Shown piece by piece: positions 3,585 through 50,812 of a stretch of DNA of 64,000 bases. The notes under the pieces were generated by a model, which did not search any database, was not told the origin of the DNA, and saw only the letters and a program-made list of their open reading frames with translations. Source of the stretch: Ginglymostoma cirratum (taxonomy: Eukaryota); assembly GCA_024137785.1 (NCBI GenBank), contig JAHRHZ010000249.1:38775282-38839281 (forward strand). The letters run 5' to 3'. The first letter of the stretch is position 1, and every line of letters begins with the position of its first letter. The position numbers and the translations under genes were made by a program.

Positions 3585-3818
3585 CTCAGTCGAGTTTTCC
3601 TTGTTTATTACTATGCAGTCCTGTTACATAACAGTTCTGCAAAACTGGGATATGTACAAGGTTTCTAAAGTCCCATATTCAGTGACGTCTGACAAGAAAA
3701 CAAAATCACTTCCATTCATCATTTTGTGCTGCTAGCTTTATAAGAGGAATTCAAATATGCTGAAGTGATGCCAGGTCTGCCCGTTATCATTGTTGCATTA
3801 CCAGTACACAGTCTAAAA
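3585..3818 (+). pseudogene. Candidate disabled exon with TBC-like GYVQG motif
   Basis: Polypyrimidine acceptor (ttttattcatagag) and gtaaga donor. 78 codons LSRVFLVYYYAVLLHNSSAKLGYVQGF*SPIF...ALPVHSLK with three in-frame stops. Confidence 0.3.
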
Positions 3819-4635: not shown

Positions 4636-4875
4636 GAGATAACAAGGTGTGGGGCTGGATGAACACAGCAGGCCAAGCAGCATCATAGGAGCAGGAAAGC
4701 TTGACGTTTCGGGCCTAGACCCTTCATCAGAAAATCTGGGATATGTACAAGGTTTCTAAAGTCCCATATTCAATGACATCTGACAAGAAAACAAAATCAC
4801 TTCCATTCATCATTTTGTGCTGCCACACACCTTGTTATCTCGGATTCTCCAGCATCTGCAGTACCTTTTATCTCT
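4636..4875. mobile_element. PLE pLTR foldback insertion (family A) containing captured local DNA
   Basis: Left arm gagataacaagg...catcagaaaat; 88-bp copy of 3645-3732; right arm cacaccttgttatctc plus tail. TSD tctcttctgg(c/t)gg at 4624-4636 and 4871-4883. Confidence 0.9.
4701..4730 (-). ncRNA. Minimal type I hammerhead ribozyme motif (PLE-type)
   Basis: Reverse complement reads CUGAUGA-A-GGGU(CUAG)GCCC-GAAA-CGUC-AA: intact catalytic core, stem II and palindromic ACGU stem III. Confidence 0.75.
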
Positions 4876-6600: not shown

Positions 6601-7184
6601 TTGACCAAAGGACTCCATCTACTGACTTTGGTTCCATATAACTGAACAGCCTTGCATAACTTAAATTTATCCATCTCGGTTTTTTAATTTTCAATTGACC
6701 TAACCTCAGCAGGTAAGAGTTCTAGATTTCCACTACTTCCTTCATGCAATGCAGCCAAATATGGACAAAGTAAATTTCATAATCATATACTCCTACCTCT
6801 GCCATATTTTGTGGCCCACAGTTTAATGTACATGTTTGCAATACGGACCCAAATTATAGCATAGATCATTGACGATGTCAGGACAGCTTTATATGTAAGG
6901 TCGGATCAGATGTGGGTGACACAGTCAGGTTCAGCATGAGGGGAGTTGCACCATGGTTCAAAGCCTTTGATGTAATAACAAACAGTTTATTCCATTCCAA
7001 TGTGGACCTGTTGTAGGCAAATGATGTTGATGGGGTGTTGAGTGGCAGGAAGTCCAATGCAATGTGAAAGTTGATTCATTGTCCCACACAGCTTTCTGAA
7101 GCTTTGCTTTTTTTTTGCAGGGAGCAGCACTATGTATCAGATCAGGGCCTGCCATTGTTGAGTGTGGACACCCTGTTCCTTCAC

Positions 7185-8390
7185 TCAAAGATAGTAAAAA
7201 CTGCAGATGCTGGAGTCAGAGATAACACAGTGTGAATCTGGAGGAACACAGCAGGCCAGGCAGCATTAGAGGAGCAGGAAAGCTGACGTTTTGGGTCGGG
7301 ACCCCTCTTCAGAAATAAGGGAGGGGTAAGGGAGCTCAGAAATAAATAGAGAGAGGAGGGGTGGGACTGGGGAAGATAGGTAGGATGGTGATAGGTGAGT
7401 GCAGATAGACAGTGGTGGGGATTAGTCAGTGAGGTGGGAGGAGCGGGTAGGTGGGAGAGAAGATGGGCAGGTTGTGTCAGCTCAAGGAGGCGAGGATGAG
7501 AGGGAAGGTTGGTCATGGGATGAGGTTGGGCATAGGGAGATTTTGAAACTGGTAAAATCCACGTTTAGGTCATCGAGCTGTAGGGTCCCGAGAAGGAATA
7601 TGAGGTGCTGCTCCTCCAGTTTGCGGGTGGCGTCATTGTGACCATGGAGGAGGCCCAGAATGGACATGTCACCCAGGGAGTGGGAGGGGGAGTTGAAATA
7701 GTTCGGGACTGGAAGGTATTGTCATTTGTCATGAACAGAGTGCAGGTGCTCTACAAAGTGGTCTCCGAGCCTCCGCTTGATCTTGCCAATGTAGAGGAGG
7801 CCACATTGGGAGCAGCCGATGCGATAGACCACATTAGCGGATGTGCAGGTGAACCTCTGTCTGATGTGGAAGGTTTTTTTGGTTCCTTGGATGGAGGTGA
7901 GGGGGGAGGTGTCGGCTTCCAGTGCAGGTGTAGCACTTCCTGCAGCTGCAGGGAAAGGTGCTGGGGGTGGTGGGGCTGGCAGGGAGTGTGGGGGGTACGA
8001 GGGAGTGGTGGAGAGAGCTGTCCCTATGGATGGCAGATAAGGGTAGAGAGGGAAATATATCTTTGGTTGTGGGGTGAGATTGTAGGTGGCGGAAGTGGAG
8101 GAGAATTATACATTGGATATGGAGGTTGAAGGGGTGATATGTGAAGACAAGGGGGATTCTGTCTTTGTTTTTGTTGTGGGGATGGGATGTGAGGGCTGAG
8201 GTGCGAGAAACACAAAAGATATGGGAGAGAGCATTTTCGACTGAAGAGGAGAAGTTGAGGTCCTTGAAATATGAGGACTCCTGGGATGGGAGTGAAACAC
8301 CCCATCTTGGGAGCGGATGTGGTGGAGGTGGAGGAATTGGGAGTAGGGGATCACATTCGTGCAGGAAGGTGAGTGAGATGAGGTGTAGAA
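7185..8390 (-). mobile_element. Penelope-like retroelement 3' part (RT C-terminus, GIY-YIG endonuclease, 3' pLTR)
   Basis: Peptides MSILGLLH..DATRKLEEQHLIFLLGTLQ..LNVDF and a GIY-YIG-like YIGK segment in another frame. Terminal repeat 7185-7312 is the same sequence as the foldback arms, with a hammerhead core at 7283-7312 (GAAA mutated). Confidence 0.9.
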
Positions 8391-8994
8391 GGAAGGAAGT
8401 TCCTTCACATTGTGGTGCTGTGACCCCATCCTAGTTAAACAGCAAGAGAACAAGCCCGGATGAAACCATATGAAACAGCATCAAAAACAGACAAGACAAA
8501 TAGACAGTTTTATTTTTCATGTATCACTGGAGTAAAACGGTTTAAAATGGAGAAGCCCACTCCAGTAATGGTGTGTCATAGACCAGACAGGGAGTCTGAG
8601 TCATTTTGGTCACATGCACTTTTGCCTGCATGTTTCAATCTGGAGCTGTTGATAATGATGGTAGAGATCCAATGTTCTTCCATCACATAGCTGATCAGCA
8701 GTCATTCCCACTCATCCCACCTACCATCAGTATGTTTGGAAAGAATTGCTAGTTAATAGTCAATTTGGCTGGCCATGTAACAAGCACAACTTACAGACCA
8801 TCAAGTCCTGGAGTGGGACAAACCAAGGATCTCCAGCTCAGAGTCATGAAGACTACCCACCTACATCAAAGTTTAAATAAGTTCCAACAGTAAATGCTCC
8901 CGAGTGATTATTCCACTTAGCCTGCACATGGGATTAGGTTGCATTGAGTTGATTTATTACTCTTCAGTAACTTAAATCATGATTGGATTTAGAT

Positions 8995-9795
8995 ATCATT
9001 GCTCAGGTATTTGAGTGTAAGAGTTGGGACATCATGTTGAATTTGTACAGGAAATTAGTGAGGCCTCTTCTGGAGTATAAGGTCAAAAATCACATGACAT
9101 CAGGTTATAGTCCAACACGTTTATTTGAAGACACAAGCTTTTGGAGCCTCACTCCTTCGTCAGGAGACTCTGAAAGCTTGTGTCTTTGAATAAACCTGTT
9201 GGACTATAACCTGGTATTGTGTAATTTTTGACTTTGTCCTCCCCAGTCCAACACCGGCACCTCCACATCACTTTCTGGAATACTGTATTCAGTTCTGATC
9301 ATCCTGCTATAAGAAAGATGTTATTAAATTGGAGATGGTTCAGAAAAGATTTACCAAATATTGCAGGGAATAGAAGGCTTGAGCACATTCGGCTGGATAG
9401 GCTGAGACCTTTTCGCTGGAGTGTAGGAAGTTGAGGGGTGACCTTCCTGAGGTTTATAAAATCATGTCAGGCATGGATAAAGAGCTTTTCCTGAGGTTGG
9501 GGAGTTCAAAACTAGGGGGCATATTTTTAAGGTGAGAGGAGAAAGATTTAAAAAGGACATGAGGGGCAATATTTTACATCAAGTTGTTTGTGTGTGTAAT
9601 GAACTGCCAGAGGAATGGTGGATGCAGGTACAATTACAACATTTAAAAGACATTTGGATAAAAAATGATTAGGAAAGGTTTGGAGAAATATGGGCCAAAT
9701 GCAGGCAAGTGGGACGAGATTAGTTTGGGAACATGGTTGGCATGGATTAGTTGGACTAAAAGGTAGATTTCTGTGTTCTATGGCTATAACTCTAC
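8995..9795 (+). mobile_element. CR1 LINE 3' fragment
   Basis: SWDIMLNLYRKLVRPLLEY motif and CR1 3' UTR; interrupted by the foldback at 9078-9270. Confidence 0.85.
9078..9270. mobile_element. PLE pLTR foldback insertion, family B
   Basis: Inverted arms caggttatagtccaac / gttggactataacctg with extra tail. Minus-strand CUGACGA-A-GGAG..CUCC-(A)AAAGCU hammerhead-like core. Flanked by ttctggagta / ttctggaata. Confidence 0.8.
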
Positions 9796-12717: not shown

Positions 12718-13445
12718 GAGATAAAAGGTACTGCAGATGCTGGAGAATCCGAGATAACAAGCATGGGGCTGGATGAACACAGCAGGTCAAGCAGCATCAT
12801 AGGAGCAGGAAAACTTGACGTTTCGGGCCTAAACCCTTCATCAGAAAATCATTTTCTGATAAAGGGTTTAGGCCCGAAACGTCAAGTTTTCCTGCTCCTN
12901 NNNNNNNNNNNNNNNNNNNNNNNNNNNNNNNNNNNNNNNNNNNNNNNNNNNNNNNNNNNNNNNNNNNNNNNNNNNNNNNNNNNNNNNNNNNNNNNNNNNN
13001 NNNNNNNNNNNNNNNNNNNNNNNNNNNNNNNNNNNNNNNNNNNNNNNNNNNNNNNNNNNNNNNNNNNNNNNNNNNNNNNNNNNNNNNNNNNNNNNNNNNN
13101 NNNNNNNNNNNNNNNNNNNNNNNNNNNNNNNNNNNNNNNNNNNNNNNNNNNNNNNNNNNNNNNNNNNNNNNNNNNNNNNNNNNNNNNNNNNNNNNNNNNN
13201 NNNNNNNNNNNNNNNNNNNNNNNNNNNNNNNNNNNNNNNNNNNNNNNNNNNNNNNNNNNNNNNNNNNNNNNNNNNNNNNNNNNNNNNNNNNNNNNNNNNA
13301 GGAGCAGGAAAACTTGACGTTTCGGGCCTAAACCCTTTATCAGAAAATGATTTTCTGATGAAGGGTTTAGGCCCGAAACGTCAAGTTTTCCTGTTCCTAT
13401 GATGCTGCTTGACCTGCTGTGTTCATCCAGCCCAATGCTTGTTAT
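12718..13445. mobile_element. PLE pLTR foldback insertion (family A), young, spanning a 400-N gap
   Basis: Perfect 15-bp TSD ccctgtctcagttga at 12703-12717 and 13446-13460; intact hammerhead cores at 12815-12844 (-) and 13355-13384 (+). Confidence 0.9.
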
Positions 13446-13594: not shown

Positions 13595-14446
13595 GTATGT
13601 GCAGATTGTTGACCATTCTTTATGTTGTGTTTAGAACAATTTATTTTAGACTATGATCTGGAGACAAAGATAAATAATGTATTCAGCATGAAACTGCAGC
13701 ATGCTTTTTAAAAATATTCAAAAGTTGTCAAAAATGTCTTCACTTTTTGCCCCTCCTGAATGAAGCTGCTGAGTCTTGGTTTTAAATTTTACTATTTTGT
13801 GATACCTCACCTAAATGCCCTTCTTCATGTGTTGGACTATAACCTGATGTTGTATGATTTCCGACTGTGTCTATGGTGGTTATATAAACGGTCTCTTCGG
13901 CATTTCTGTACAGCCATTTAGACTCTAAGATATTAAACTGAGAATTCAGGCTTTTTACCAATTTTATAGACTCGTATATTTTGGTCCATTTGCTTTATGG
14001 AAAATCATAATTCTAGGAATTGGGTCTGAACTTGCACAAAATGCCAATGAGCAATATGAGTTCTGAAACTTTCTTTACCTATATCCAAAGAAAAAAGATG
14101 TATTGTCTTAAATATTGTAAATGTATGAACAGGTTATTTGAGTGGGAAGCATTACAGTGTGTCCTTTGTGCTCTGTCCTCACACAATCATTTTTCAACAC
14201 AGTACACTGGATTGCAATAGAAAGCGAGGACTGTACCTAATTTTGCTGTCCTAAGTCCTGGGAAGGTTTCCTGAGTGAGTGAGTAGGCAGCAAAGTGGGC
14301 ACCCAACTTCCTTGATGTTACAGGTTGTGGTGGATGATGGCGCATGGGGAAGACATTGCAGGAAATAGGGACAGTGGTAGAGTTTGACCCTTGATGGGTG
14401 GTCGGTGCAGTAGCAGAAATAAAGTGAATGTGAGGTATCAGACAGA

Positions 14447-14552
14447 AATGGTGGCAAGCGCAGAAGATGCTGGAGAAACCCAGCAGGTCCGACAACATCT
14501 GTGGGTATAGAGCCAGAGTTAATATTTTGAGTCCGATATGTCTCTTCTTCAC
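14447..14552 (-). mobile_element. PLE pLTR single arm, family C, decayed
   Basis: gatgctggagaaacccagcaggtccgacaacatctgtgg...cttcttca is similar to the arms at 41722 and 49673. Confidence 0.6.
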
Positions 14553-15969
14553 AAGTGTTATGGGAAATGGTGCCACTTCCTCCATAAGAGTGGAGAATGA
14601 CATTGACCTTCTTCCTTCAGTTTTTTTTAAATTTGCTTGTGCAATGTGGGTGTTGCTGGTTGAGCCAGCATTTAGTTCATTTCCCTAGTTGCTCTTGAGA
14701 AGTTGGTGGGGGCCCCAGATTAGGCATTCCTCGAGATAGCTGTGTGTGCTTTAATTTGGGTGGAAAATCTTAGACTAAGTTGGCATAGTCTGGTATTGTG
14801 GCTTCTACTGCTGGTCTTGGGGGAAAAGGAAGTCCTCCCTGTGTACCAACCCATGTGACAGGAAATCCAGGACATTGCCCGCAAACTGGGGCACTGATTT
14901 CCCATGATTGCTATGCCCAGAGCGAATATCAGGAAAAGTGCAAGGCAGTTCCGGACTGGCAGTCTTTGTCTGCATGCACAATGGGCTTTTAAATATGGTA
15001 GTGGTACCAGGGATGCCAGTCAATTCAGGGATGTCCAGTGAGTAGTAGGTTGCTCCAGGAATAGTATGTGATAAAATGGGGGGTGGAAATCAGCTGTGAT
15101 ACTTGACAGAGGCTAAAACAGCATTAATCCAGCAAGACTGATAAGACATGGCAAGAAGATTTGCTCAGCCACATGGTGATAGTCACTTCACTAAAACCAA
15201 TGTGGCTTGCCCTTAACCAAAAATATCAGCAATTTTTTTTAAACTTCCTCATCACCTAGGCTATTTCAAACTAGGATGAAAATAAAAAACAAAATATGTT
15301 TAAAATAATTAATATTAGTATAAAGTAGCTTGCTATCCAATCTGATAAATTTTTTTTAGGCAGTTCAATAGTTTTGCTTAATACCATACATGTCCATCAG
15401 GGCAGACTATGGTATAAGATAGAATGAAAAGACATAGTCTACCATTCTGATGAATGATGACCCTTCAGATAATGCCTCATTCCAATTATTGTCCCTTCCC
15501 TGGCTCTAATCTAATGATTCTAATCTATCTTTCATTTTTTTTTCCTATTACTGCTATTCATTCATGCCTTACGCTTTCAATTTCTCATCTATCCAATATT
15601 ATTATCTAGCAGTGATCTAGTATTCTTGAACTTATTTACAATGAGCTCTTCATATAGACTTTGAATTAACTGCTTGTTTGAATCCACTATTTTTAACCAT
15701 AAACTCATTGTCAAGAAATTCTAACACAATGATCAAATAAGACCAAGAGAAGTTTGGTACGAATTATTTTTGTCTAGGGAAGTATCTATGTGGTTTCAGC
15801 GAAAGCCGTATTTACCCATCATACATACGGATTAACAATTCCCCAAGAGGAAGTATTGCATACAATATAAACTACGTTGCAAAATTCTAATCAGATTCAA
15901 TAAGGATTCATAATTTTCTTCCAGCTTTATCAACTTAACTTAATTAATTCTTAAGTTTATTCTGTATTT

Positions 15970-20371: not shown

Positions 20372-21033
20372 CTGGAATGAGTATTTTCTTGTCACGTGTA
20401 CTGAAGTATAGTGAAAAGCTTCATTTATGAGCAGTACAGGCAGATCATAGTAAGCAAGGATGTAGAGATCAGCAGTTGTAAAAAGACTTAGACATAGGCA
20501 TACAGGTTACATTGCGCAGGGCGTGCGCTAAGCGAGATCATCATTAGCAACATTAGCATTATTTGAGGCTAGAGAATCTATTCATCCATCTAATAATGGC
20601 CGGGAAGAAGCTGTTCTTGAACCTGCTGGTTTGTGTGGTCAGGACTTTTGTATCTTTTGCCTGATGGACGAGGTTGTAGGAGATTATTACCAGGGTGTGA
20701 TGGGTCCTTGATGATGTTGGCAGCCTTTCCGCAGCACTGAGCCATGTAAGTAGAGTACATCGATGGAAGGTTGGCTTCCGTGATGGTCTGGGCTGGCAAC
20801 ACCACGTTCTGTAGTTTCTTACGGTCCTGGGCAGAGCAGTTGCTGTACCAGGCTGTTATGCACCCTGACAGTATGCTTTCTATAGTGGATATATAGAAGT
20901 TGGTGAGGGACCTTATGGACATGCCAAATTCCCTGAGCTGCCTGAGGAAGAAGAGGTGTTGTTGTGCCTTCTTGACCATTGCATCTATATGGGAAGTCCA
21001 GGACAGATTGTCAGTTATGGTCTCTCCTAGGCA
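20372..21033 (-). mobile_element. Rex1/Babar-clade LINE 3' fragment
   Basis: 129-aa ORF KKAQQHLFFLRQLREFGMSIRSLTNFYISTIESILSGCITAWY, typical of the Rex1/Babar RT C-terminus, followed by a 3' UTR. Confidence 0.85.
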
Positions 21034-21052
21034 TGACTATCCAATCCAACAT

Positions 21053-21152
21053 TTTTTTTTCTGATGAAGGGTCTAGGCCCGAAACGTCAAGTTTCCTGCT
21101 CCTATGATGCTGCTTGGCCTGCTGTGTTCATCCAGCTCCACACCTTGTTATC
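21053..21152 (+). mobile_element. Single tail-less PLE pLTR arm (family A) with TSD
   Basis: TSD tccaatccaacat at 21040-21052 and 21153-21165; T-run then ctgatgaaggg...cttgttatc. Confidence 0.85.
21061..21090 (+). ncRNA. Minimal type I hammerhead ribozyme motif (PLE-type)
   Basis: ctgatga-a-gggt(ctag)gccc-gaaa-cgtc-aa; all core nucleotides present, predicted cleavage after GUC. Confidence 0.75.
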
Positions 21153-22049
21153 TCCAATCCAACATCCAACCAGGTACCAGTCCCCGAGCAGAGCTACATT
21201 TTGGTGCCAAAACATCTACATTATCCTTACAGCAGTAATTAACCTGCATTTTGTTTCCAGGCCAGTTCCCAATAGTTGTCTTTCCTTCTCTCCATTTTTT
21301 AAAAAGAAGCCTCTGTTTAAAGCTCCAAGTTCAATTCTCAACTGCAACTTACTGTTTCAAACCAAAACTGAGAAAAATAATGATCGTTTTAAACAAAAGG
21401 TTGATTAAAAAAAACATATTGTTTCTAACTCTAATTGGATCATGTTGCAGTGGATTCCATCACATGACTGTCCACCTACAATCACTCAACCTTCATGTTC
21501 TCCTCATTACCCAGCTAGCACTTCAACCCTAATGGTGACAGGCTAAGAACGCTTGTTGTGTTAGCCTCACTCCTCTATGCTGTAGAAACTAGTCAATCAA
21601 TTGCATTGTCTGAATAGAACATGCATGCATCAGTGTTGCATTATACCCTAAGTATACCGTTTATTGTAATTCTGGCTACAGCAAAATTGAAGAAGAGGAA
21701 GATTAAATTTTTTTTTTGTTTTTACCGGGTTCTTCCAAAGGCATTTTTTATGATCCAGTAGACTTAGGATAACCTGAGCAGACTAGTAAAGCCATGCACA
21801 AATGTGATACTCATAAGCAAACAAGCAATATTCAGCTTATTTCAAAATGAAGAACATGAAATACATGACTGACAAAGCTACAAGTGAGCAACAGAGGTTT
21901 TATCATTCATAATATTAGATGTTGTAGAACTTGTTACTCCAGATTTTATGAATGAATAGAAGGCAAATGACTTTCAATTCAGAAGTGTGAGGTGATGCAC
22001 TTCGGTCAGAAGAACATATAAAATAAAGTCGTTAAACATAAAATAAAGT

Positions 22050-23090
22050 CAGTCTGGCAGCTTTTGTGTAGAGACAAACTGAATTAACATACTGAGTCTG
22101 ATATAGCTCTCATTTAGAAGTGAAACAGGTTGGAAGATGATGTTTTTTATGCTGTTGACAGAAGGGGAGGAGGAACGGACGGAACGGATGGTGAGTTTTG
22201 CCCAGCACAAATAAAATCAAAGGCAGTGCTAATATTGGTAAAGAAGAAATTGAGATATAAAATATGTGTAAACGAGTGTTGTGAAAAGGGGGAAATGGCT
22301 TAAAGCAAATCCAACAAGAGAAAAACAAGGCATGGGCCATGGTTGGAATGGGTTGTAATCAAAATGGAGGACAAAGGTGTAAAATTGTTGAACTTAATAT
22401 CGAGGTAACAAGGTGTAGAGCTGGATGAACACAGCAGGCCAGGCAGCATCAGAGGAGCAGGAAAGCTGACGTTTCAGGTCTGGACGGTATTTGGACTTTT
22501 CGGGTTTCTTCAGAAAATTCTACAATACCTAATATTATGAATGAGAAAACCTCTGTTGCTCGCTTGTAGCTTTATCAGTCGTGTGCATTACATGTTCTTC
22601 ATTTCTGAAGAAGGGTCCAGACCAGAAATGTCAGCTTTCCTGCTTTTCTGATGCTGCTTGGCCTGCTGTGTTGATCCAGCTCTACACCTTGTTAATCTCA
22701 GATTCTCCAGAGTTGGCAGTTCCTCCTCTCTCCGAGCTTATTATGGAGTCGTGAAGTGATGTGTTGTCCCTCTAGCTTTTATTGAACTTCATTGGAACAC
22801 AGCAGTGGGAAGGAAATATTTGCATGGGAGCAAGAGGGTTTATTGAAGTGATGAATAATCAGAAAGTCAAGTTCTTACAAACAGAGCAGAGGTATTCTGC
22901 AAAGTTGTTACCCAGTCTTAGTTTGGTCTCAGCAATGTAAAGGCATTATGAACAGTGAATACTATACAGTACATTGAACGAGGTACAAATAAAATGCTGC
23001 TTCAGATGCATTTGGGACCTTGGACGCTGACAGGCAAGAAGAGGTAAAAGGGCAAGTGTTCCACCTTCTCTGAGTGCATGGCAAACTGCA
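22050..23090 (-). mobile_element. Old Penelope-like element 3' part
   Basis: Decayed pLTR near 22050-22120 and sequence homologous to the GIY-YIG region of 7185-8390 at 22740-23080. Confidence 0.65.
22402..22732. mobile_element. PLE pLTR foldback insertion (family A) containing captured local DNA
   Basis: Two inverted arms; spacer 22518-22604 is an inverted copy of 21845-21929; degenerate TSD gaacttaatat / gagcttattat. Confidence 0.9.
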
Positions 23091-25835: not shown

Positions 25836-25932
25836 TTGTATGATGTGAATAATTGTGTTCACAACACTGACCCCTGCGGAACTCCACTAGTCACTGGCTG
25901 CAATCCTGAAAAGGACACCTTTATCCTCACTG

Positions 25933-26155
25933 AGATAACAAGGTGTAGAGCTGGATGAACACAGCAGGCCAAGCAGCATCAGAGGAGCAGGAAAGCTGAT
26001 GTTTTGGGTCTGGACCCTTCTTCAGAGTTCTGAAGAAGGGTCCAGACCTGAAACGTCAGCTTTCCTGCTCCTCTGATGCTGCTTGGCCTGCTGTGTTCAT
26101 CCAGCTCTACACCTTGTTATCTCAGATTCTCCAGGATCGGCAGTTCCCACTACCT
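25933..26155. mobile_element. PLE pLTR foldback insertion (family A), complete and ungapped
   Basis: About 96-bp near-perfect arms (25931-26026 and 26029-26124), 2-nt loop, roughly 30-bp tail, perfect 14-bp TSD ctttatcctcactg at 25919-25932 and 26156-26169; hammerhead core at 26030-26059. Confidence 0.95.
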
Positions 26156-27187
26156 CTTTATCCTCACTGGCTACCTTCTTGTCAATCTTCGATCCATGCT
26201 AATACTTTTCCCCTAATACCATTGTCTGATCTTGTTTAGCAGCCTCCTAGAAATCCAGATAGATCCTGCCCACTAGCTATCCTCTGTCTGACTTGCTCAT
26301 TAACTCTTCAAAGAATTCTAACAGATTTGTCAGGCATGACCTCCCATTGACAAAATCGTGCTGTTTCAGCCCTTTTTTACCATGCACTTCCATGTACTCC
26401 TCAATCTCAGGCTTAGTACTGGACTCTAAAATCTTACTAACAACTGAAGTCAAGCAAATTGGCATATAATTTCCTGTCTTCTGTTGCTTTCTCTTTTTAA
26501 ACAGGGTGGTTAGCCCTTACCTGACTTCAATGGTTCATGAAAGATCACCACCAATGTCTGCGATACCAAATGTTGATTTGTTGTATTTAGATTTCCATAA
26601 GGCATTTGACAATCTCTCAGCTATCTCTGTTAGAACTCTGCAGTGTCATCCATCTAGTCCAGGTGATTTATCCACCTTCAGACCTTTCAGCTTCCTAGCA
26701 CCTTCGCCTTAGTGACAGCCACTACACTGACCTCTGTCCCCTTACTCTGCTGAAGTTCTACTGTGCCTCCTGAATTACCTCCAGAAACTCCTTCCATTGG
26801 TGCTCCGCCATCTTCCCTGCTGGACTGTCTGTCCAATCAGCTCCTCCTTTATGTCTTTGTAGTTACCTTTACTCAATTGTAATACCGTTACATCTAATTC
26901 AAACTTCTCCCTCTCAAACTGCAGGGTGAATTTTATCATATTATGGTCACTGTCCATAGGTGTTGTTTCACTTTAAGCTCCCTAACCAAGTCTGCCTCAT
27001 CACAATGCTTGCAAAAGCTTCGAAATACTTCTGAAGCATAAAAAAAGTAAAATTATAAAAACTGTATCTGCTTTTTGTAATCATAACCATGCACTTAAAA
27101 CATACCCCCATGACTTAGTTTAAAGCCCTAGCCACAGCTCCAGTTATGCAATTCACCAAGACTCTGATCCCAGCATGATTCAAGTGG

Positions 27188-27539
27188 GGGGTTAAAATTA
27201 TTTCAGAGATAGGAACTGCAGATGCTGGAGAATCTGAGATAACAAGGTATAGAGCTGGATGAACACANNNNNNNNNNNNNNNNNNNNNNNNNNNNNNNNN
27301 NNNNNNNNNNNNNNNNNNNNNNNNNNNNNNNNNNNNNNNNNNNNNNNNNNNNNNNNNNNNNNNNNNNTAGAGCTGGATGAACACAGCAGGCCAAGCAGCA
27401 GCATAGGAGCAGGAGAGCTTGACGTTTTGGGCCTAGACCCTTCTTCTGAACAAGGGTCTAGGCCCGAAACATCAAGCTCTCCTGCTCCTATGATGCTGCT
27501 TGGCCTGTTGTGTTCATCCAGCTCTATACCTTGTTATCT
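27188..27539. mobile_element. PLE pLTR foldback insertion (family A) spanning a 100-N gap
   Basis: TSD atgattcaagtgg at 27175-27187 and 27540-27552; inverted arms. Confidence 0.9.
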
Positions 27540-28766: not shown

Positions 28767-29313
28767 GTAGGAACTGCAGATGCTCGAGAATCTGAGATAA
28801 CAAGGTGCAGAGCTGGATGAACACAGCAGGCCAAGCAGCATCATAGGAGNNNNNNNNNNNNNNNNNNNNNNNNNNNNNNNNNNNNNNNNNNNNNNNNNNN
28901 NNNNNNNNNNNNNNNNNNNNNNNNNNNNNNNNNNNNNNNNNNNNNNNNNNNNNNNNNNNNNNNNNNNNNNNNNNNNNNNNNNNNNNNNNNNNNNNNNNNN
29001 NNNNNNNNNNNNNNNNNNNNNNNNNNNNNNNNNNNNNNNNNNNNNNNNNNNNNNNNNNNNNNNNNNNNNNNNNNNNNNNNNNNNNNNNNNNNNNNNNNNN
29101 NNNNNNNNNNNNNNNNNNNNNNNNNNNNNNNNNNNNNNNNNNNNNNNNNNNNNNNNNNNNNNNNNNNNNNNNNNNNNNNNNNNNNNNNNNNNNNNNNNNN
29201 NNNNNNNNNNNNNNNNNNNNNNNNNNNNNNNNNNNNNNNNNNNNNNNNNATAGGAGCAGGTCCTATGATGCTGCTTGGCCTGCTGTGTTCATCCAGTTCT
29301 GCACCTTGTTATA
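28767..29313. mobile_element. PLE pLTR foldback insertion (family A) spanning a 400-N gap
   Basis: TSD tcaaagacc(g/a)gggtgt at 28751-28766 and 29314-29329. Confidence 0.9.
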
Positions 29314-29834: not shown

Positions 29835-30170
29835 TCATAGAATCCCTAAAGTGTGGATGCAGGCCATTCAGTCCATCAAGTATACACTGGCCCTCCGAAG
29901 AGCATCCCACCCAGACTCATCCCCTACACTAACTCTGCAACCCTGCAATGCTCATGGCTAATTCACTTAGCCTGCATATCCCTGGGATGCTATGGGCAAT
30001 TTAACATGGCCAATCCACCTAACCTGCATATCATTGGACTGTGGGAGGAAACCGGAGCCCCCGGTACAAACCCACGCAGATGCAGGGAGAATGTGCAAAC
30101 TCCACACAGACAATCACATGAGGGGGGAATCAAACCCGTGTCCCTGGCGCTGTCAGGCAGCAGTGCTAGC
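29835..30170 (-). mobile_element. HE1-like V-SINE
   Basis: Reverse-complement paralog of 40628-40955. Confidence 0.9.
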
Positions 30171-31019: not shown

Positions 31020-32460
31020 CTGATGGTCTACATCCCAAAGTGTTGAAGGATGTGGCTATAGAGATAGACAATGCACTGGTAATCAGCTTCCAAAATTCTG
31101 AGATTCTGGAATTATTCTTGCAGTTTGGGAGCATGCAAATGCCATACCAATATTTAAGAAAAGACCAAGAGAAAAAAAGGGAATTACAGATCCAACAGTA
31201 TTACATAAGCAATAAAGAAAATGCTGAAATCTATCATAAAGAACATGATAAATGGACACTTGAATACAAATAATCTGATTGGGCATAGTTAAAATGGATT
31301 TGGGAATGGAAAAAAGCATTGACAAACTTATGGAGTTTTTTTGAGGATATCACTAACAAAATTGATAAAGGGAAGTTGACGAATGCAGTATAACTAGATT
31401 TTCGGAAGGCTTTTGATAAGGTCTCTTATAGGGACATGATACAGGGTTAATGTAGTGGCATGGATTGTAAATTGATGAACAGAAAGAAAGCAGAGTAGGA
31501 ATAAATGGGTCATTTTCACGTTTGCAGGCTGTGACTAGTGGTGTACTTTAGCCCCAGTTGTTCACAATATAAATCAATAATTTGGACACGGGGACCAAAT
31601 CTAATATTTCCAAACTTGTGGATAATACCAAGCTAAGCAGGAATATGTGTTGTGAGGAAGATGCAAAGTGTTTTCTGGAGGATTTGTACAGGCTGAGCAA
31701 TTGGGTAAGAACATGGCAGACAGAATATAATTTGAAAAAAATGGGAAATTATCCACTTTATTAAGAGGATCAGATGTGCAAAGTATCTCTTGGATGGTGA
31801 GAGGTTGGAAAGTATAGATATACAAAGGGATTTGGGTGTCTTTGTAAATAAGTCACCTAAGGCTAGCAAGCAGATGCAGGAAGCTGTTAGGAAGGTCAAT
31901 CAAATGTTAGCTTTTATTGCCAGATGATTTGATTACAGCAGTAATGTGGTTTTGCTAATATTAAGAGGAGCCTGGTTAGACCACACCTGGACCACTGTGT
32001 TCCATTTAGATTTCTTTATCTCAGGAAAGATATTGGTGCCATGTATCGAGTGCAACAAAGGTTCACCAGACTTGCTCCTTGGATAGCGGGACTAATCTCT
32101 CGAGAGATTGGGCAAACTGGGCCCGTATTCTCTAGAGTTTGGAAGCATGAGAGTGGAGCTCATTGAAGCTTACAAAGTACATAAAGGGATAGACAGGGTA
32201 GATGCAGGTAAGATGTTTACCCTGGTTGGGCAATGTAGAACCAGGGCACAATTTAAAATCAATGCCATTTAGCTCCCAGATGAGAAGTTTTGCAGAAGCT
32301 CAGTTTTTGATTATATTTAAAATGAATTTTGATAAATCTTTCATTATCGATAGCCAGAGGGTTATGGGAATATTGTGGGTAAAAGGCACTGAAGTGTTTG
32401 ATCAGTTTGATCGTATTGAATAGCAGGGCAGTCTTGATGGGTTGAATGGCCATTTCCTGT
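31020..32460 (+). mobile_element. CR1 LINE ORF2 and 3' end, decayed
   Basis: DFRKAFDKV, SNISKLVDNTKL and LVRPHLDHCV motifs, then CR1 3' UTR. Confidence 0.85.
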
Positions 32461-33600
32461 GCCTGTGTTTTGATACTGAATAATGTCATCATGAAGAAAC
32501 AGCCAGTCTCAACATCCAGAAGGCAAGAAGCTGAGGAGCTGAAGCATCGAGCGGAGGGTATTGGGAAAGAAGAGGAGGTGGAGGCAGAGGAAGGGGAAGG
32601 GAGATTACTATCTCGACAGCACCTTCCTGCACAATCTTCACATGAGAACTAATTGAAGTACAATACGAATAACTTCAACCCAATACCCGATTCACTAACC
32701 ATCCCACCTCTTGCCAAACCTCGAATACTGGGCATCATATCACCCTCATGAAAATTTAAAACTTAAACTCAATACAGGACACACATTCCAGTCCAAATTT
32801 ATGAATTACCTCATGGCATATTGCATCCAAAGACCAATACTCAGTGTAAGGGAAAAATTATGGTGACTGGGGGACAGGAAAGTAAGAATTGCATTCTTTT
32901 ACATTTGCAACTTGTATATCACAACAACTTATAGGATAATGGTGAAGTAAAATGTGAGAAGGATTCGGTACGATGATGTTGTCATCTTGAATTGATTCAG
33001 CTATGCTGAGGAACTGGCTAGCAGCAATGGCCTACACTATAATGCTTTGCAGTAACTCCTTCAAGGGGTCAGAATATTTAAGTTTTCCTTCTCTCTCTCC
33101 AGCTACTTGCTGCATTGGCATTGGCTGCCTTCATGAGAAAAGGAAGTGAATGTTTTGTAATATGTTTGGCTGAAGAGACTAGTAAGGTTAAAACTCTGAA
33201 AATGTGTGCAAGCTCGGTTTGCAACAATGTTAAGTGTGAGAGGTTGAAGTGGAGAATATAAACCTTAAGTATGAGTCATGATTGTTAGAGATTTTCAGTA
33301 GTAGAGTGATGGGAATGTGGTGACATGAGCAGTGTCTGGATCCAGCAGTGCAATTGGTAGCATATTATAGTTGAAGATCCATTTGCTGACCTTGTTTGGT
33401 CTTAAGAGGTCATTTACATTTCTTGCTGCATTGCACCCAGCCAAAGTGCGACAAAATCGCTGATGTTGCTCTCTGTGACGATTTGTTCTCATTGCTTTCT
33501 CATCAGGGTTTGCAGGGCTCTTGATCTGAGGATACAGGACATCAGTTCTCCTTCCGATCCCCTCAATGCAGACTTCCAGAGCAGCTTTCAAAAACTCAGG
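32460..33600. mobile_element. PIF/Harbinger remnant: transposase C-terminus (+) converging on a Myb/SANT-like gene (-)
   Basis: Plus ACVLILNNVIMKKQP..EEEVEAEEGE (CCxLHN-like plus acidic tail); minus LEVCIEGIGRRTDVLYP...NDLLRPNKV. Confidence 0.6.
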
Positions 33601-33624
33601 TGCATACTCTGTCCTATGGCCAGC

Positions 33625-36554: not shown

Positions 36555-38400
36555 TTCGACCGTAAGGCGAAGGGACAGAAATAGACCCTTCAGCCCATTG
36601 AGTCTGTTCCGCCATTCAGTGAGATCATGGCTGATCTGATAATCCCCAACTCCACTTTCCTGTTTTTCTCCCCATAACCCTTGATTCCATAATGGATAAA
36701 AATTGCAGCCTTGAATATACTTAATGACCAGCCCCAACAGCCCACTGCAGTAAAGAATTCCACATTCACTACCCTCTGAGAAAAGAAAGTCCTCCTCAAG
36801 AGAGTGAGCCTTACATCTGTTGTAGGAAAAGTTTTGGAAAGGATTATAAGAGATAGGACTTATAATCATCTAGCCAGCAACAATTTGATTGGAGATAGTC
36901 AACATGGATTCGTCAAGGGCAGGTCGTGTCTCACAAACCTCATTGAGTTTTTTGAGAAGGTGACCAAACATGTGGATGAGGGTAGGGCAGTTGACGTGGT
37001 GTACATGGACTTCAGTAAAGCCTTTGATAAGGTTCCACATGGTAGGCTATTGGAGAAAATGCAGAGGCATGGGATTGAGGGAGATTTAGCAGTTTGGATT
37101 AGAAACTGGCTTTCTGAAAGAAGGCAAAGAGTGGTGGTTGATGGAAAATATTCAGCCTGGAGTCCGGTTACTAGTGGTGTGCCACAAGGATCTGTTTTGG
37201 GACCACTGCTGTTTGTCATTTTTATAAATGACTTGGACGCTGACATAGGTGGATGGGTTAGTAAGTTTGCAGATGACACTAAAGTCGGTGGAGTGGTGGA
37301 CAGTGTGGAAGAATGTTGCAGGTTGCAGGGAGACTTGGATAAACTGCAGAATTGGGCTGAAAGGTGGCAAATGGAGTTCAATGCAGATAAATGTGAGGTG
37401 ATTCACTTTGGGAAGAATAATAGGAAGGCAGAATACTGGGTCAATGGAAAGATTCTTGGTAGTGTGGATGTGCAGAGGGATCTTGGTGTCCAGGTAAATG
37501 GATCCCTGAAAGTTGCCACCCAGGTTGATAGTGCTGTTAAGAAGGCATACGGTGTGTTAGGTTTCATTGGTAGAGTGATTGAGTTCCGGAGCCGTGATGT
37601 CATGCTGCAACTGTACAAAATGCTAGTGCGGCCTCACTTGGAATATTGCATACAATTCTGGTTGCCCCATTAGAGGAAGGATGTGGAAGCATTGGAAAAG
37701 GTGCGGAGGAGATTTACCAGGATGTTGCCTGGTCTGGAGCGAAGGTCTTATGAGGAAAGACTGAGGGACTTGGGTCTGTTCTCATTGGAGAGAAGAAGGC
37801 TAAGAGGGGATTTAATAGAGACCTACAAAATGATCAGAGGATTAGATAGGGTGGACAGTGAGAGTCTTTTTCCTAGGATGATGACGTCGGTTAGTACGAG
37901 GGGGCATAGCTGCAAATTGAGGGGTGATAGATTTAAGACAGATGTCAGAGGCAGGTTCTTTACTCAGAGAGTGGTAAGGGCGTGGAATGCCCTGCCTGCC
38001 AATGTAGTTAACTCAGCCACATTAGGGGCATTTAAACAGTCCTTGGATAAGCATATGGATGATGATGGGATAGTGTAGGGGGATGGGCTTAGATTAGTTC
38101 ACAGGTCGGCGCAACATCGAGGGCCGAAGGGCCTGTTCTGCGCTGTATTGTTCTATGTTCTATGTTCATCTCTGTCTCAAATGTATGAACACTTATTCTG
38201 CGATTATTCTCTCTGGTCCTAGACTCTCCCCCAAAAGGGAAACAACTTTCTACACCTACCTTGACAAGTCCCCAAAGAGTATTATAACAAGGTCATCCTT
38301 ACTCTTCTATATTCCAATAAGTACAGGGTCAATCTATTCAACCTCCTTATAAGACAATCCCTCCATACGTGATATCAGCCTAGTGAATCGCCTCTGGACT
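36555..38400 (-). mobile_element. Older CR1 3' fragment split by the young CR1 insertion
   Basis: MRRTFFSQRVV at 36590-36799; the host sequence resumes at about 38168 (cctcctca|tctctgtc). Confidence 0.75.
36800..38166 (+). mobile_element. Young 5'-truncated CR1 LINE with near-intact RT
   Basis: ORFs 36804-37673 (QHGF, DFSKAFD, GVPQGSVLGP, FADD) and 37683-38078 are in one frame separated by a single stop; ends in (gttctat)n. Confidence 0.95.
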
Positions 38401-40627: not shown

Positions 40628-40955
40628 TAGGGTGGCATGGTGGCTCAGTGGTTAGCACTGCTGTCTCACAGTGCCAGGGACCTGGGTTTGATTCCACCCT
40701 CAGGTGATTGTCCGTGTGTAGTTTGCACATTCTTCCTGTGGTTGTGTGGGCTTCCTCTGAGTGCTCTGGTTTCCTTCCACAGTCCAAAGATGTGTAGTTT
40801 AGATGGATTGACCATGCTAAATTGACAATAGTGTGCAGGCTGGGTGGGTTAGCCATGGGGTAGGGGCGTGGGTTGGGGTGGAATGTGCTTTGGAGGGACA
40901 GTGTAGACTCAATAGGCCGAATGGCCAGCTTCCACACTATAGGGGATTCTATGAT
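40628..40955 (+). mobile_element. HE1-like V-SINE, full length
   Basis: A box tggctcagtgg, B-box-like ggtttgattcc, V-domain and CR1-like tail ending gattctatgatt. Confidence 0.9.
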
Positions 40956-41721
40956 TACATTGACCCTTGCTCAGAGGTTAGCTTCAATTTTTCCTCCAAA
41001 GATGTTGCCAGACCTGCTGAGCTTTTCCAGCAATGTCTGCTTTTGTTTTTAACATTTTCTTAAACTGCTCAAAGTAGTTGACCCACTTAATATACTTTAA
41101 GCAGTACTTTTATAATTGAGACACCAGATGATGACAAATGCCTAGTGTCAATCCTCCAGTATAGGTGTCTGTTTTGCGATAAGGTAATTAGTTGATGAGT
41201 AATTAATCAAGTTACACTGGGCTTGAAACATTAACTCCACCTCTGTCCCTCCACAGGCATTGCTAGATATACTCGGTTTTATTTTCTGCTTTATACCAAC
41301 AGTATCCCTCTCTGTTACAAGAGAGAGAAAGAGAAAAAGAGAGAGAGAGAAGTGGTTATGTAAATTGAGGGGCACCACTGCACTGTATGTGCAGGGCAAG
41401 GCAAGTGGCAAGACTCCATGAATTGTCACAGTGGAGTTGAACCCACACCATTGACACTAAGCCACGCCACACACCATCATCTGACAGGCCTACCTGATAC
41501 TCACTGTTTGGGATAACCAGGCAGGTCAGAGTTTATTGATGTGGGCTGTACATGCTTTTATATGCTTTTATATTATTTTCCTCCTCCAAATCAAATTGTT
41601 TTTGGATGGAAAGATTTAGAATGTTCACAGCAATATGAAAAGATAGAGCCACTGCAAGTTTGAAATGACATACATGGAACCAGAAGAAGCAGGGAATATT
41701 CTAATGCATAGCAGAAAGACT

Positions 41722-41935
41722 AATTAAGAACTGCAGATGCTGGAAATCAGAGACAAAATCAGAAATTATTGGAATAACTCAGTGGGTCTGGCAGCATCTG
41801 TGAAGAGAAAGCAGAATTAACATTTCAGGTCCAGTGACCCTTCTTCAGATTAGGTTACTGGACCTGAATCATTAATTCTGTTTTCTCTCCACAGATGCTG
41901 CCAGATCTGGTGAGTTATTCCAGCAATTTATGTTA
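41722..41935. mobile_element. PLE pLTR foldback insertion, family C
   Basis: Arms tctggcagcatctgtg / cacagatgctgccaga with extra tail; minus-strand CUGAAGA-A-GGGUC..GACCU-GAAA core. Confidence 0.8.
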
Positions 41936-42049
41936 TTATTCTAATGAATGTTTATTTAAGTAACTTCTGGTAATATTTGATGAGGTTTACTTTGGTAGAT
42001 TTTAAGACAGCAGGGAAGTGTACTGGCATAAGTATTCTGGTCTTATTTA

Positions 42050-45000
42050 GTCACAAGAAGGGTTTAAAATTGATAAGGTGGAGGTATTGGACAAACTATT
42101 GGTATTTAAAGTTGATAAGGGCTATACGAGATGCATCAAGGAGTTTGAATGAAGAGAGAATGAAAATTGCAGAGGCACTGGCAATAATCTTTCAAACTTC
42201 TCTTAATTTACCATTTCATGCCTGATGATTAGAAAATTATAAAAACTGTGCTCTTGATAAAAAAAAAACACGTTGTAAAGGTTGGCCCAACAAGTACAGA
42301 GCAGTCAGTTTAACATCAGTGGTAGGGATGCAATCAATTATTTGGAATAAAATTAATCAGTCGCAAGGAAAAATCTGGGTTAATTCAGAAGAGTTGGCAT
42401 GGGAATGTTCATGGGAAATTGTGCTCAACTAACTTGCTGTAGATTTTGAAGCAACAACTGAGAGCATTGGTGAGAGCATTGTATATATTCAGTTCCAATG
42501 GCATTTGATACAAAGTCTCATAACAGACTTTTGATTGTTGAGGGAAGAGCATTGGATGTTGTCTACGTGGACTTTAGCAAGGCCTTTGACAAAGCCCTTC
42601 ATGGCAACCTGATACAGAAGGTGAAGACATATGAGATCCGTAGTGAGCTGGTAAGATGGATACAGAACTGGCTTGGTCATAGAAGACAGAGAGTAGCAGT
42701 GGAAGGGTATCATTCTGACTTGCAAACTGTGACCAGTGGTGCTCCATAGGGAACAATGCTGGGACCCCTGTTAATTGTAATATATATAAACGATTTGGAG
42801 GAGAATGTATCAGAGATAGGGTCTAAGCCCGAAACGTCAAGCTTTCCTGCTCCTATGATGCTGCTTGGCTTGCAGTGTTCATCCAGCTCCACACCTTGTT
42901 ATCTTGGAGGAGAATGTAGGTGATCTGATTAGTAAGTACGCAGATGACACAAAGATTGGGGGAACTGGAGATGGTTGCCAGAAGATACGGCAGGATATAA
43001 ATGGGCTGGACACTTGAGCAGAGAAATGGCCCATGGAATTTAATCTGGACAATTGCGAGATGATGCATTTTGGAATGTGTAATGCAGGAGGGAAGTATAC
43101 AGTAACTGGCAAAACCTTTAGAAGCATTAACATCCAGAGGGATCTCGGCGCACAGATCCACAATACCCTGAAAATGGCAACACAAGTGGATAAGGTGGGT
43201 CAAGAAGACATATGGCATGCTGGTCTTCATTGGTTGGGGCACAGATTTTGAAAGTTGGCAAGTTTTGTTGTAGCTGTATAGATGTCAGGGAGGTCACATT
43301 TGGAATGTTGCACACAGTTCTGGTTACATCACTACAAGAAGGATGTGGAGGCTTTGGAGAGATTTCAGAAAAGGTTTATCAGAATGTTGCTGGTTTAAGG
43401 GGTAACAACTATGAAGAGGGATCAAAAGAGGGAACTCGGTTTGTTGTCACTTGAATATCGACGACTGAGGGGTGACCTAATAGGGAGGTTATGCTTCAGT
43501 GAGTCTGGGCATTGGTGAGACTGCATTTTGAGTACTATGTACTTTGGTCACTGTATGTATGGGAAGGACATTAATACTTTGGAAACAATTCAGAGAGGGT
43601 TTATGAGACTAGTACCTGGAATGAATGTATAGCCCTCTGAGGAAAGGCTACACAGTCTAGGCCCATATCCTCTGGTGTTTAGAAGAGTCAGAGGTAGGTT
43701 AATTGAAACATGTAAGTTCCTGAAAGGAACTTGACGTTGAAAGGATGTTTCCTTTTGTGGGAAAATCTGAAACTAGAGATCATAGTTTAAAATATGAGAT
43801 TTAAAACAGAGAATAGTTTTTTTCTCTCAATAGGTTGTGACTCTTTGGAATTCTCTTCGTCAAAACACAATGGATGTAGAATCTTTAAAATGTTTAAGGC
43901 AGAAGTGGATGGATCCTTGATTACCAAAAGGATGAAAGATTTTCAGAGATATGCAGAAATGTAGAGTTATGTATAAAAATAAATAAGTTGTGATCTCATT
44001 TCATGGCAGAATAGGCTCAAAGGGCCAAATGGCTGACTCTTTTATCTTGTTTAGAAGTTCATTTTGACAGAAAACAGAGATTAGTAGTTAATGGATATTT
44101 TTCAGCCTGGTGGAAGTTTAAAGTGGAATTCCCTAGGTATTGGCATTGGGACCGTTGCTTTTCCTGAGATATTAATAGATATAAATGATCTTGATCTTGA
44201 TCTTGCTGTGCATGGAATAATTTTAAAGTTTCTGGGCAGCACAAAACATTGTAGAATTGTAAACTTTGAGAGGTCAGTGTAGAACCTCATAAGGAAATTG
44301 ACAAGCTGAAGAGGTTCAATGTGGAAGTGTGAGGTGATGCCCTTTGGTACAAAGAACATTGAGAGGCAGTATAAAAGTTACTATTCCAAAGGGAATGCAG
44401 GGCAGACACTTGTGTAAATATTTACATAGATCATTGCAGGACAGATAGGGAAATCTGTTGATAATGCATAATGTATTCTAGACATCGTTAAGAGGGACAT
44501 AGAGTACAAGAGCAGGGAAATTATGTTAAATTTAGCTAAGACACTGGTTAGACCTCAGCTGGAATATTGTGTGCATTCTGGGCATTTGTCTTTAGGAGGC
44601 ATGTGAATGAATTGGAGAGAATGCAGAAATGATTTATGATAACGATTCCGGGGATCTGAAGCTTCAATTATTGAGAAAGATTAGACAAGTTGGAACATGT
44701 TTCCTTGGAGAGGAGAAGGCTAAGAGGATATTTGATAGAAGTTTTCAAAATCACAAGGGATATGGTCAGAGTAGATAGGGAGACAATGTTCCCAGTTGTA
44801 AAATGATGGAAAACCAGTGGTCATTGTTTCATAATATTTTGCGAGCGAAACAAAGTGAGATGAGAAAGAGCTCTTTCACATAGTGAAAGGTTTACGTCTT
44901 GAATGCACTGTCTGTAACTGTGGAGACATTTAAGAGGCCATCACATAATTATTTAAATAGAAATAAAGCACAGAGTTATAGGGCAAAAGCAGAATTTGGT

Positions 45001-49672: not shown

Positions 49673-49902
49673 TAAAAACCGAAAGAACTGCAGATGCTGT
49701 GAATCAGGAACAAAAACAGAAGTTGCTGGAAAAGCTCAGCGGATCTGGCAACATTTGTGAGGGAAAAAGTCCCGCATGTAAACTGATGTTTTCCCAGCTG
49801 CCATTAGTTCTGAGGAAGGGTGACTGGAGTGAAACATGAACTCTGTCTTTTTCTTCACAGATGCTGCCAGACCTGCTGAGCTTTTCCAGCAACGTCTATT
49901 TT
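49673..49902. mobile_element. PLE pLTR foldback insertion, family C
   Basis: Arms gttgctggaaaagctcagc / gctgagcttttccagcaac; TSD tgttaacgcacaccca / tgttaacacataccca at 49657-49672 and 49903-49918. Confidence 0.85.
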
Positions 49903-50479
49903 TGTTAACACATACCCAGCCTTAAATATTCCTCTCGTCTTTCACCTTATCTGCTGGTGGCTGTGTCTTTAACTATCTTGTTGTACACATTGAAACCCCC
50001 TTCTGTCACCTTTCCACCTTAGTCTCCTCTTAAGTTGTTTGAAATCCATTTCTCCGACAAAGCTTACGGTCACCTTCATTAATACTTCCAAGGTAAATTT
50101 CTGAGTTTGTTAGAGCAAGAACACTTCCTTAATTTTGCACCTAAACATTGGCAAAAAGTCAGCAGTAATCTCAAGGAAATAGCATAAATGATAAAAGCAG
50201 TGATTCTGAAGATTCTGTGTTAATATCACAGTGAGAGATGGGATCCATGGAGATGTCAGGCATTTATCTTTAAATGCAAAGTATTAAGAAAATAAATCAG
50301 CACTGGGGATTTTTTTTTGCTATGATTGTTTTTAACCTGTGCTGCCCTCTACCCTGGCAACTAACAAAGTTAATTTTTCAATATTACTTACTTTGATGAA
50401 TGGAATTCAATGTAATCATTCGAATACAGTATTAAAGTTTTAAATAGCAAACAAGCAAAAGTCAATTCTGATCAATTTT

Positions 50480-50812
50480 TTAATATATTGATTCACAGGA
50501 TGTGGATATTCAGCACTTACTGCCTGTCCCTAATTTCCCAGAGGCAGTTAAGCGTCTTAGGTCTGGAGTCACATGTAGTCCAGACCAGGTAAAAATCGTA
50601 GATTTTCTTCCCTAAAGGGAATTCGTGATCCAGGTGGGGTTTTATGACAATCAACAGTGGGTACAAGGGGTCACTATTAGGCCTACTCCCTATGCCATAT
50701 GTTTATTGGATTGAAATTTCACCATGTGGCATTTAAACTGATGTCCCCAGAACATCAGCCTGTGTTCTAGATTGCTAGTCTCGTTACATTACCACTACAC
50801 CAGCAATTTCCC
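50480..50812 (-). mobile_element. SacSINE1-like Deu-SINE
   Basis: Reverse-complement paralog of 11952-12294. Confidence 0.75.

Follow-up and report, generated by a model that had tools for sequence, protein, structure and literature searches.

The segment at positions 25919-26169 of the window (the whole 64-kb stretch of DNA analysed here) is a short hairpin of two inverted arms derived from the pLTR of a Penelope retroelement (PLE). It raises the question how such foldbacks arise and whether the hammerhead motif they carry has a role in this form. The window is animal DNA with 39% GC and many CR1-like LINE fragments, its repeats seem to resemble those of a cartilaginous fish, and it contains 12 insertions of this kind; all locus counts given here refer to this single 64-kb window and its 12 loci. 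The foldbacks are probably products of twin target-primed reverse transcription of short, uncleaved 5' pLTR RNA, with the cDNAs joined by repair. This reading is based on the observed anatomy, the target-site duplications (TSDs), the restriction of the tail to one arm, the unique centres, the locally copied filler and the decay of the hammerhead core.

Inverted pLTRs, one-sided tails and TSDs have been described for PLEs (PMC3846280, PMC8557442, PMC8969392), and opposite-strand hammerhead pairs are likewise already published. The origin of the tandem or inverted ends and of the one-sided tail is called unresolved in PMC8557442. For the abundance of pLTR-only copies and for the evidence of twin priming no precedent was found, and short inverted copies may already be contained in Fig. 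S2 of PMC11167929. Neither pLTR-only foldbacks in fishes or at this density nor twin priming by PLEs were found in the open literature (Repbase/Dfam and subscription journals were outside the scope).

Anatomy of the insertions

The focal insertion comprises 223 bp between 14-bp direct repeats, made up of a 93-bp antisense arm, 4 nt, a 94-bp sense arm and a 32-bp extension. The left TSD (25919-25932, plus strand, 14 bp) matches the right TSD (26156-26169, plus strand, 14 bp) exactly, its final base being common to the arm end. The tail-less arm belongs to family A1, lies on the minus strand (25933-26025) and carries a hammerhead remnant (26025-25998) with G12A and a non-palindromic stem III. 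The 4-nt centre (26026-26029) together with the last left-arm bases forms the 6-bp stem I of the plus-strand core. In the sense arm (26030-26123, plus strand) a minimal hammerhead (min-HHR) core at 26030-26057 is intact apart from a G10.1.U11.1 wobble, with the predicted cut after 26057. The PLE tail of 32 nt (26124-26155, plus strand) is present only on the sense arm of this element. The arms share 96% inverted identity over 196 bp. The insertion lies in a minus-strand LINE fragment of CR1-like type, clear in the left flank and weak in the right. Older CR1-like copies were the targets of at least three foldbacks (9078, 25933, 42810).

A preceding sequence-only reading had described about 11 insertions made of pLTR arms only. 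A profile search of the window (nhmmer) gave arm matches at all 12 of the 12 coordinates listed; "only" does not apply to 4636, 22402 and 49673, which contain 39-92 bp of filler. In the reversed window, used as control, family A had 0 matches and families B and C a best match of only E 0.024. An exact scan of bacterial and archaeal genome contigs with a 28-nt arm stretch gave 0 matches. The insertions occur about once per ~5 kb and occupy ~4% of the called bases including the PLE arm. Two arms are found at 10 of the 12 loci (11 if 42810 is counted), the others being the solo arm at 21053 and 42810, an arm with an 11-nt tail tip.

TSDs measure 13-16 bp at 10 of the 11 testable loci, as had been stated for most, and 10 bp at 9078; at locus 1 the window edge cuts the insertion off. 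The TSD matches exceed all 392 random flank pairs at 9/11 loci and are equalled by 3% of pairs at 9078 and 22402; insertion boundaries for this test were set by eye, and the null is therefore lenient. When the two flanks of 42810 or of 9078 are aligned on their own, they join into one CR1 RT frame with an overlap the size of the TSD, which is empty-site evidence.

The outer ends fall at two fixed positions with ~33 nt between them. Exactly one arm is tailed in 10/10 two-armed loci with both ends visible (families B and C read by eye), for which the chance is 0.001 under independent 50% tailing per arm. Read by eye, approximately 14 of 23 arms end 10 nt or less upstream of C3, with no arm going further and none starting at the site of the cut.

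The family A foldback at 1-167, cut by the window edge, has an A8T2 centre, an intact core in the tailed right arm and G12A in the left arm. Locus 4636 (4637-4870) consists of a tail-less arm with an intact minus-strand core, a 92-bp filler and an 18-nt tailed arm tip, with a TSD of 12-14 bp. The family B foldback at 9078-9272, inserted in a CR1 copy, has a minus-strand core of the AGCU type with G12A and a tailed right arm without core start. The family A2 foldback at 12718-13445 is one hairpin duplicated across a 400-N gap (98/99 bases reverse-complementary); its left arm is tailed, one core is intact, the other has G8A, and the TSD is 15 bp. The centre of this hairpin is oppositely oriented on either side of the gap, which is either an artefact or a centre inversion between alleles. 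The solo tail-less arm at 21053-21152 (plus strand) begins at a T9 run and has an intact core and a 13-bp TSD.

The family A1 foldback at 22402-22733 contains ~85 bp of filler, two damaged cores and a degenerate 15-bp TSD. A ~20-nt insertion within stem II of its left arm (22486-22506) partly repeats nearby arm bases; no outside source was found for it. At 27188-27539 a family A2 foldback spans a 100-N gap, with a tailed left arm (+18 nt), 3-nt microhomology at the centre, a 13-bp TSD and two dead cores (C3U4 missing and G12A in one, G8C in the other). The additional 18 nt by which its tail extends beyond the others (27188-27205) may be genuine PLE sequence further downstream, with RT starting at a third site. 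Neither arm of the family A2 foldback at 28767-29313, which spans a 400-N gap and has a 16-bp TSD, reaches the hammerhead. The family C foldback of locus 41722 (41710-41936, 13-bp TSD) has a tailed left arm whose core shows G.U at 10.1/11.1 and a right arm starting in stem II. Locus 42810 (42810-42903, plus strand, 15-bp TSD) lies in a CR1 RT frame; its antisense tail tip of 11 nt has the same sequence as 27203-27213 in the tail end of 27188 and is joined through 3-nt microhomology to a tail-less arm without CUGA. The family C foldback at 49673-49902 has ~39 bp of filler, a short tailed left arm, a broken right core and a 16-bp TSD.

Foldbacks break short-read assemblies: all three N gaps of the window (12900-13299, 27268-27367, 28850-29249) fall inside them, at 12718, 27188 and 28767. 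Families C and B are also represented by older, decayed arm remnants at 14449-14556, 40954-41051, 41214-41279, 22049-22090 and 13827-13871. A TSD search at the older family C remnants 40976 and 14449 found none.

Arm families and the partner element

A 5'-truncated, frameshifted PLE at 7185-8398 (minus strand) comprises RT thumb/linker, CX4CxxC, GIY-YIG, 3' UTR and a family A arm with tail. The claim that the same arm terminates this element is confirmed (nhmmer, E 6e-40), with its end corrected from 8390 to 8398. The arm has G12A in its hammerhead core, and the element is flanked by a 10-bp TSD (7175-7184 / 8399-8408). The C-terminal GIY-YIG endonuclease, with CxxC between its motifs, was read in the translated sequence; Pfam gave no match on the window ORFs of the PLE themselves. 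Seven homologs of its ORF share 73-81% identity, and six of them match GIY-YIG, mostly under the curated cut-off. The RT core has been lost by truncation; among thumb/linker relatives, 5/6 scanned have RVT_1 followed by GIY-YIG. A CX2-5CxxC linker motif is the mark of Neptune or Nematis PLEs (PMC8557442), and by the GIY-YIG domain and CX4CxxC motif of its predicted product the element is assigned to the EN+ type, Neptune/Nematis. There is no full-length PLE or 5' pLTR in the window.

The short insertions derive from PLE pLTRs: family A directly, family C by homology (cross-match to A, E 7e-14) and family B (9078), which has no cross-match to A and no PLE partner in the window, by anatomy only. 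This origin and the long, variable TSDs bear out the earlier view of retrotransposition products. Diagnostic alignment columns set apart the subfamilies A1, A2 and PLE-like A3, and both arms of one element fall in one subfamily. The tail-less end of families A and C (26105-26125, 41755-41765) shows a pyrimidine run followed by AG-like bases and resembles a splice acceptor; this is absent in family B.

EN+ PLE insertions (PMC3846280, PMC8557442) have the same head-to-head inverted pLTRs, a tail of 30-40 bp at one end and a variable TSD, and likewise show heavy 5' truncation, assembly trouble and solo pLTRs. They differ from the present loci, in which pLTR arms stand alone, the TSD is 13-16 bp and pLTR-only insertions exceed ORF-bearing copies by 12 to 1 in the window.

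Centre junctions and mode of insertion

The sequence-only reading considered the foldbacks as non-autonomous ribozyme retroelements and named unique centres as evidence against propagation as a unit. The centres differ in 11/11 cases in the window, without a shared junction, and two contain locally templated filler; the proposal is not supported. The filler of 4636 is a direct 92-bp copy of 3641-3732 (plus strand), 905 bp upstream, with a score of 169, and that of 22402 an inverted ~85-bp copy of 21841-21932 (minus strand), 470 bp upstream, with a score of 122; the maximum in 20 shuffles each was 35. Short shared bases occur at the joints of both. The filler of 4636 differs from its source at 2/88 positions, that of 22402 by 7 mismatches and 2 gaps in 83, compared with 7 and 1 in 84 between the arms of 22402. 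At both loci filler divergence thus matches the age of the element, which points to capture at insertion. A source search within the window for nine centre or extension segments found two, the other seven scoring at shuffle level, and for the ~39-bp filler of 49673 the window offers no source. The DNA from which fillers were copied might belong to dispersed repeats with copies outside the 64 kb.

In 5/10 loci (4636, 9078, 27188, 42810, 49673) the arm without tail comes closer to the centre than its tailed partner, which indicates that neither arm is a copy of the other. The two arms of 42810 have no sequence in common. Among variants present in just two arms, 7/11 are common to both arms of one element, five of these seven coming from the gap-spanning 12718; this is expected if one source RNA gave both arms, and it also fits gene conversion or a foldback master. 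The arms of 22402 are not each other's nearest neighbours. Differences outside CpG between the arms of one element are few (0/88, 2/88 and 3/87); CpG changes differ between the arms. In a small sample CpG decay is mostly plus-strand C-to-T at 25933 (3/3) and locus 1 (~5/6; 1-70, 25990-26057), and not at 22402 or 27188.

According to the twin-priming reading the foldbacks would be dead-on-arrival integration products of Neptune-type PLEs, each built at its own site. The PLE protein would nick both target strands 10-16 bp apart, and RT would be primed from both 3' ends, at one at the end of the pLTR RNA tail and at the other ~33 nt further in. The template would be uncleaved RNA with its 5' end just upstream of the hammerhead, giving cDNA of ~100-130 nt or shorter. 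The two facing cDNAs would then meet at the centre, where microhomology, slippage in homopolymers or a patch templated by DNA close by would join them. The resulting hairpin would have its arms head to head, its outer ends fixed, a single tail, a centre peculiar to its locus and a long TSD, and failure of one side would leave a solo arm or a tip plus arm. With RT starting only ~100-130 nt away from the 5' end of the RNA, most products of a monomeric transcript would be pLTR-only, which would account for the 12:1 excess over ORF-bearing copies. Cleaved RNA was rejected as template, no arm starting at the cut site.

The anole Poseidon element cleaves and extends both target strands in vitro with uncleaved RNA as substrate, and its RT starts at two internal RNA sites bounding the tail (PMC11167929). 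We infer simultaneous twin priming, the RNA 5' end as stop, the repair pathway and, by analogy, the transfer of these in vitro rules, which come from Poseidon and not from Neptune, to the Neptune-type family of the window. In the Penelope element of D. virilis transcription starts in the pLTR, 46 nt before an intron (PMC2377424), the end of which abuts helix I (PMC4209133). This layout makes a PLE RNA 5' end near the hammerhead plausible.

In twin priming of L1 both target strands prime, and the inverted product has inner-junction microhomology and a TSD. There the arms copy different parts of the RNA, whereas in the window foldbacks one stretch of ~100 nt is usually copied into both arms, from two fixed starts.

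A SINE-like lineage is conceivable, although we hold this only tentatively: arm or foldback transcripts would serve as templates, only the arm would be inherited, and the hairpin would be rebuilt by twin priming at each site. Such a lineage is compatible with the shared private variants (from a diverged-copy source) and with the arm subfamilies. If true, a MITE-looking family would spread without a conserved centre and would sow long dsRNA hairpins by the tens of thousands in the genome, with a possible feedback on the silencing of PLEs.

The main rival to twin priming, which we consider unlikely, is that the foldbacks are retroelements copied as a unit by the PLE protein from a few master hairpins, their centres becoming unique later by palindrome breakage and repair. 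Palindromes are generally unstable, and central deletions and templated patches can arise after insertion (PMC7999016); later breakage can mimic both the unique centres and the finding that neither arm is a copy. The age of the fillers, which equals that of the insertions, and the absence of any shared centre (0/11) speak against such an origin, even though it would suit the subfamilies A1, A2 and PLE-like A3, the private variants common to both arms and the very high density (12 insertions, ~4% of called bases). Tandem pLTR-derived retrozymes have been proposed as non-autonomous PLE derivatives (10.64898/2026.07.22.740005), which counts in favour of unit copying. It needs, however, an RT stop exactly at the far outer end, whereas here the outer ends are fixed and the centre varies, and TSDs of this kind also flank the solo-arm and tip-plus-arm products. 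With no more than 12 loci as the basis, unit copying is disfavoured by fillers matching their insertions in age and by the constancy of the outer ends.

Snap-back self-priming, in which one cDNA folds back and copies itself, has been suggested for the inverted pLTRs of rotifer PLEs (PMC3846280) and appears improbable here. It fits only symmetric centres, and near-symmetric ones occur at 1, 12718 and 25933; the near identity of the arms of one element outside CpG also agrees with it. The tailed arm that is shorter at the centre in 5/10 loci would need later deletion, as would the arms of 42810, neither of which can template the other otherwise.

The hammerhead core and the surroundings of the insertions

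A min-HHR descriptor passes at 7 positions, compared with a mean of 0.04 (maximum 2) in 100 simulated windows. Two of these positions belong to one element duplicated across the gap at 12718, and an intact core on one strand is therefore present in 6/12 insertions, 5/6 with palindromic 15.2-16.2. Stem I is only 1-3 bp long, except for 6 bp at 26030. An Rfam scan of the window (E<=10) detected no hammerhead family. Metazoan PLE min-HHRs share the bulge before stem II, G10.1-C11.1, palindromic 15.2-16.2 and the short stem I (PMC4209133).

The expectation of a hammerhead on each strand failed: intact cores occur on both strands in 0/11 two-armed insertions and remnants in 4/11 (1, 12718, 22402, 25933), the minus-strand core of the focal element carrying G12A. 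In Schistosoma mansoni dual min-HHRs lie 100-700 bp apart on opposite strands, and single dispersed motifs prevail (PMC4209133). The parts of that paper considered here present these pairs without anatomy, TSDs or mechanism; the window cores are predicted from sequence.

Non-CpG changes affect 3/125 positions in the core and 32/859 elsewhere (p=0.61). At the CpG C11.1-G12 the lethal G12A occurs in 4/14 arms and the tolerated C11.1U in 2/14. Decay of the core is like that of the remaining arm, with no sign of selection, at low power. The hammerhead, as far as the predicted cores go, is probably a passenger that decays neutrally and not a ribozyme switch.

A functional RNA device, either a hairpin off-switch for the ribozyme or a retained source of dsRNA or siRNA, is very improbable. 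The focal hairpin has a predicted fold of -199 kcal/mol in which the core is buried, and forming the hammerhead would cost 55 kcal/mol in the full hairpin versus 12-14 kcal/mol in a solo or unpaired arm. The earlier idea that the ribozyme is sequestered in the full hairpin agrees with these values. Its interpretation as a built-in off-switch fails, since sequestration follows automatically from the head-to-head geometry and the core lacks excess conservation, and arms diverge freely at CpG. No antisense arm lies opposite the intact core of 4636 or 21053. PLE min-HHR motifs need a dimer for cleavage (PMC4209133), and a head-to-head transcript contains only one sense core, so that the dimer cannot form in cis. 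No host gene was identified in the window by Pfam on 58 ORFs of the 323 ORFs >=55 aa plus longer ones and by a crude exon finder. Although siRNAs arise from inverted Penelope regions in Drosophila (PMC3681739), any siRNA output here would be a by-product. Long dsRNA hairpins from foldbacks in introns, also suggested earlier, are possible.

Non-LTR retrozymes (10.64898/2026.07.22.740005; PMC7761336) have the same pLTR origin, are non-coding and carry a type I hammerhead. They form tandems in head-to-tail order, with two ribozymes in sense orientation and a circular RNA, whereas the arms of the window foldbacks stand head to head and a transcript has one sense core at most. A tandem retrozyme was rejected, as the only local direct repeat of an arm is the one duplicated across the gap at 12718.

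Ordinary MITEs of a DNA transposon, similarly short, abundant and hairpin-forming, can practically be dismissed, as the sequence-only reading had anticipated, since only size and hairpin shape agree, while the foldbacks are of retrotransposon origin with an arm contiguous with a GIY-YIG ORF, the TSDs are long and variable (10-16 bp) rather than fixed and short, the ends are unequal owing to the one-sided tail and lack symmetric TIRs, a solo arm has a TSD, and no partner transposase was seen among 58 window ORFs scanned.

The foldbacks are a natural record of PLE insertion and a test bed for its integration mechanism, with no evidence for a new ribozyme switch. If ~1 per 5 kb is typical, the genome holds a very large set of short, fully readable junctions, from whose sequence alone twin priming could be told apart from self-priming and from unit copying. 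The junctions would also connect the two target strands with the two RT starts seen in vitro (PMC11167929). A practical risk is mis-annotation as MITEs or miRNA precursors: 12/14 Rfam matches (E<=10) are miRNA models on these hairpins, all under gathering scores and generic to hairpins.

Several other features were noted in the window. The ORF at 33298-33624 had no Pfam match and Atlas scores all <0.9; we take it to resemble a Harbinger-type Myb/SANT remnant. A homolog search with 32446-32649 found no relative. The ORF at 20593-21036 has a Pfam match to ALKBH8_N (E 4e-12) and is presumably a LINE-derived remnant. An RVT_1 match at 36780-37670 (E 1e-32) lies within a fairly intact CR1-like RT fragment (36780-38075). 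Further dispersed repeats of ~300 bp, possibly a SINE family, occur at 29835-30170, 40639-40955 and 50473-50752.
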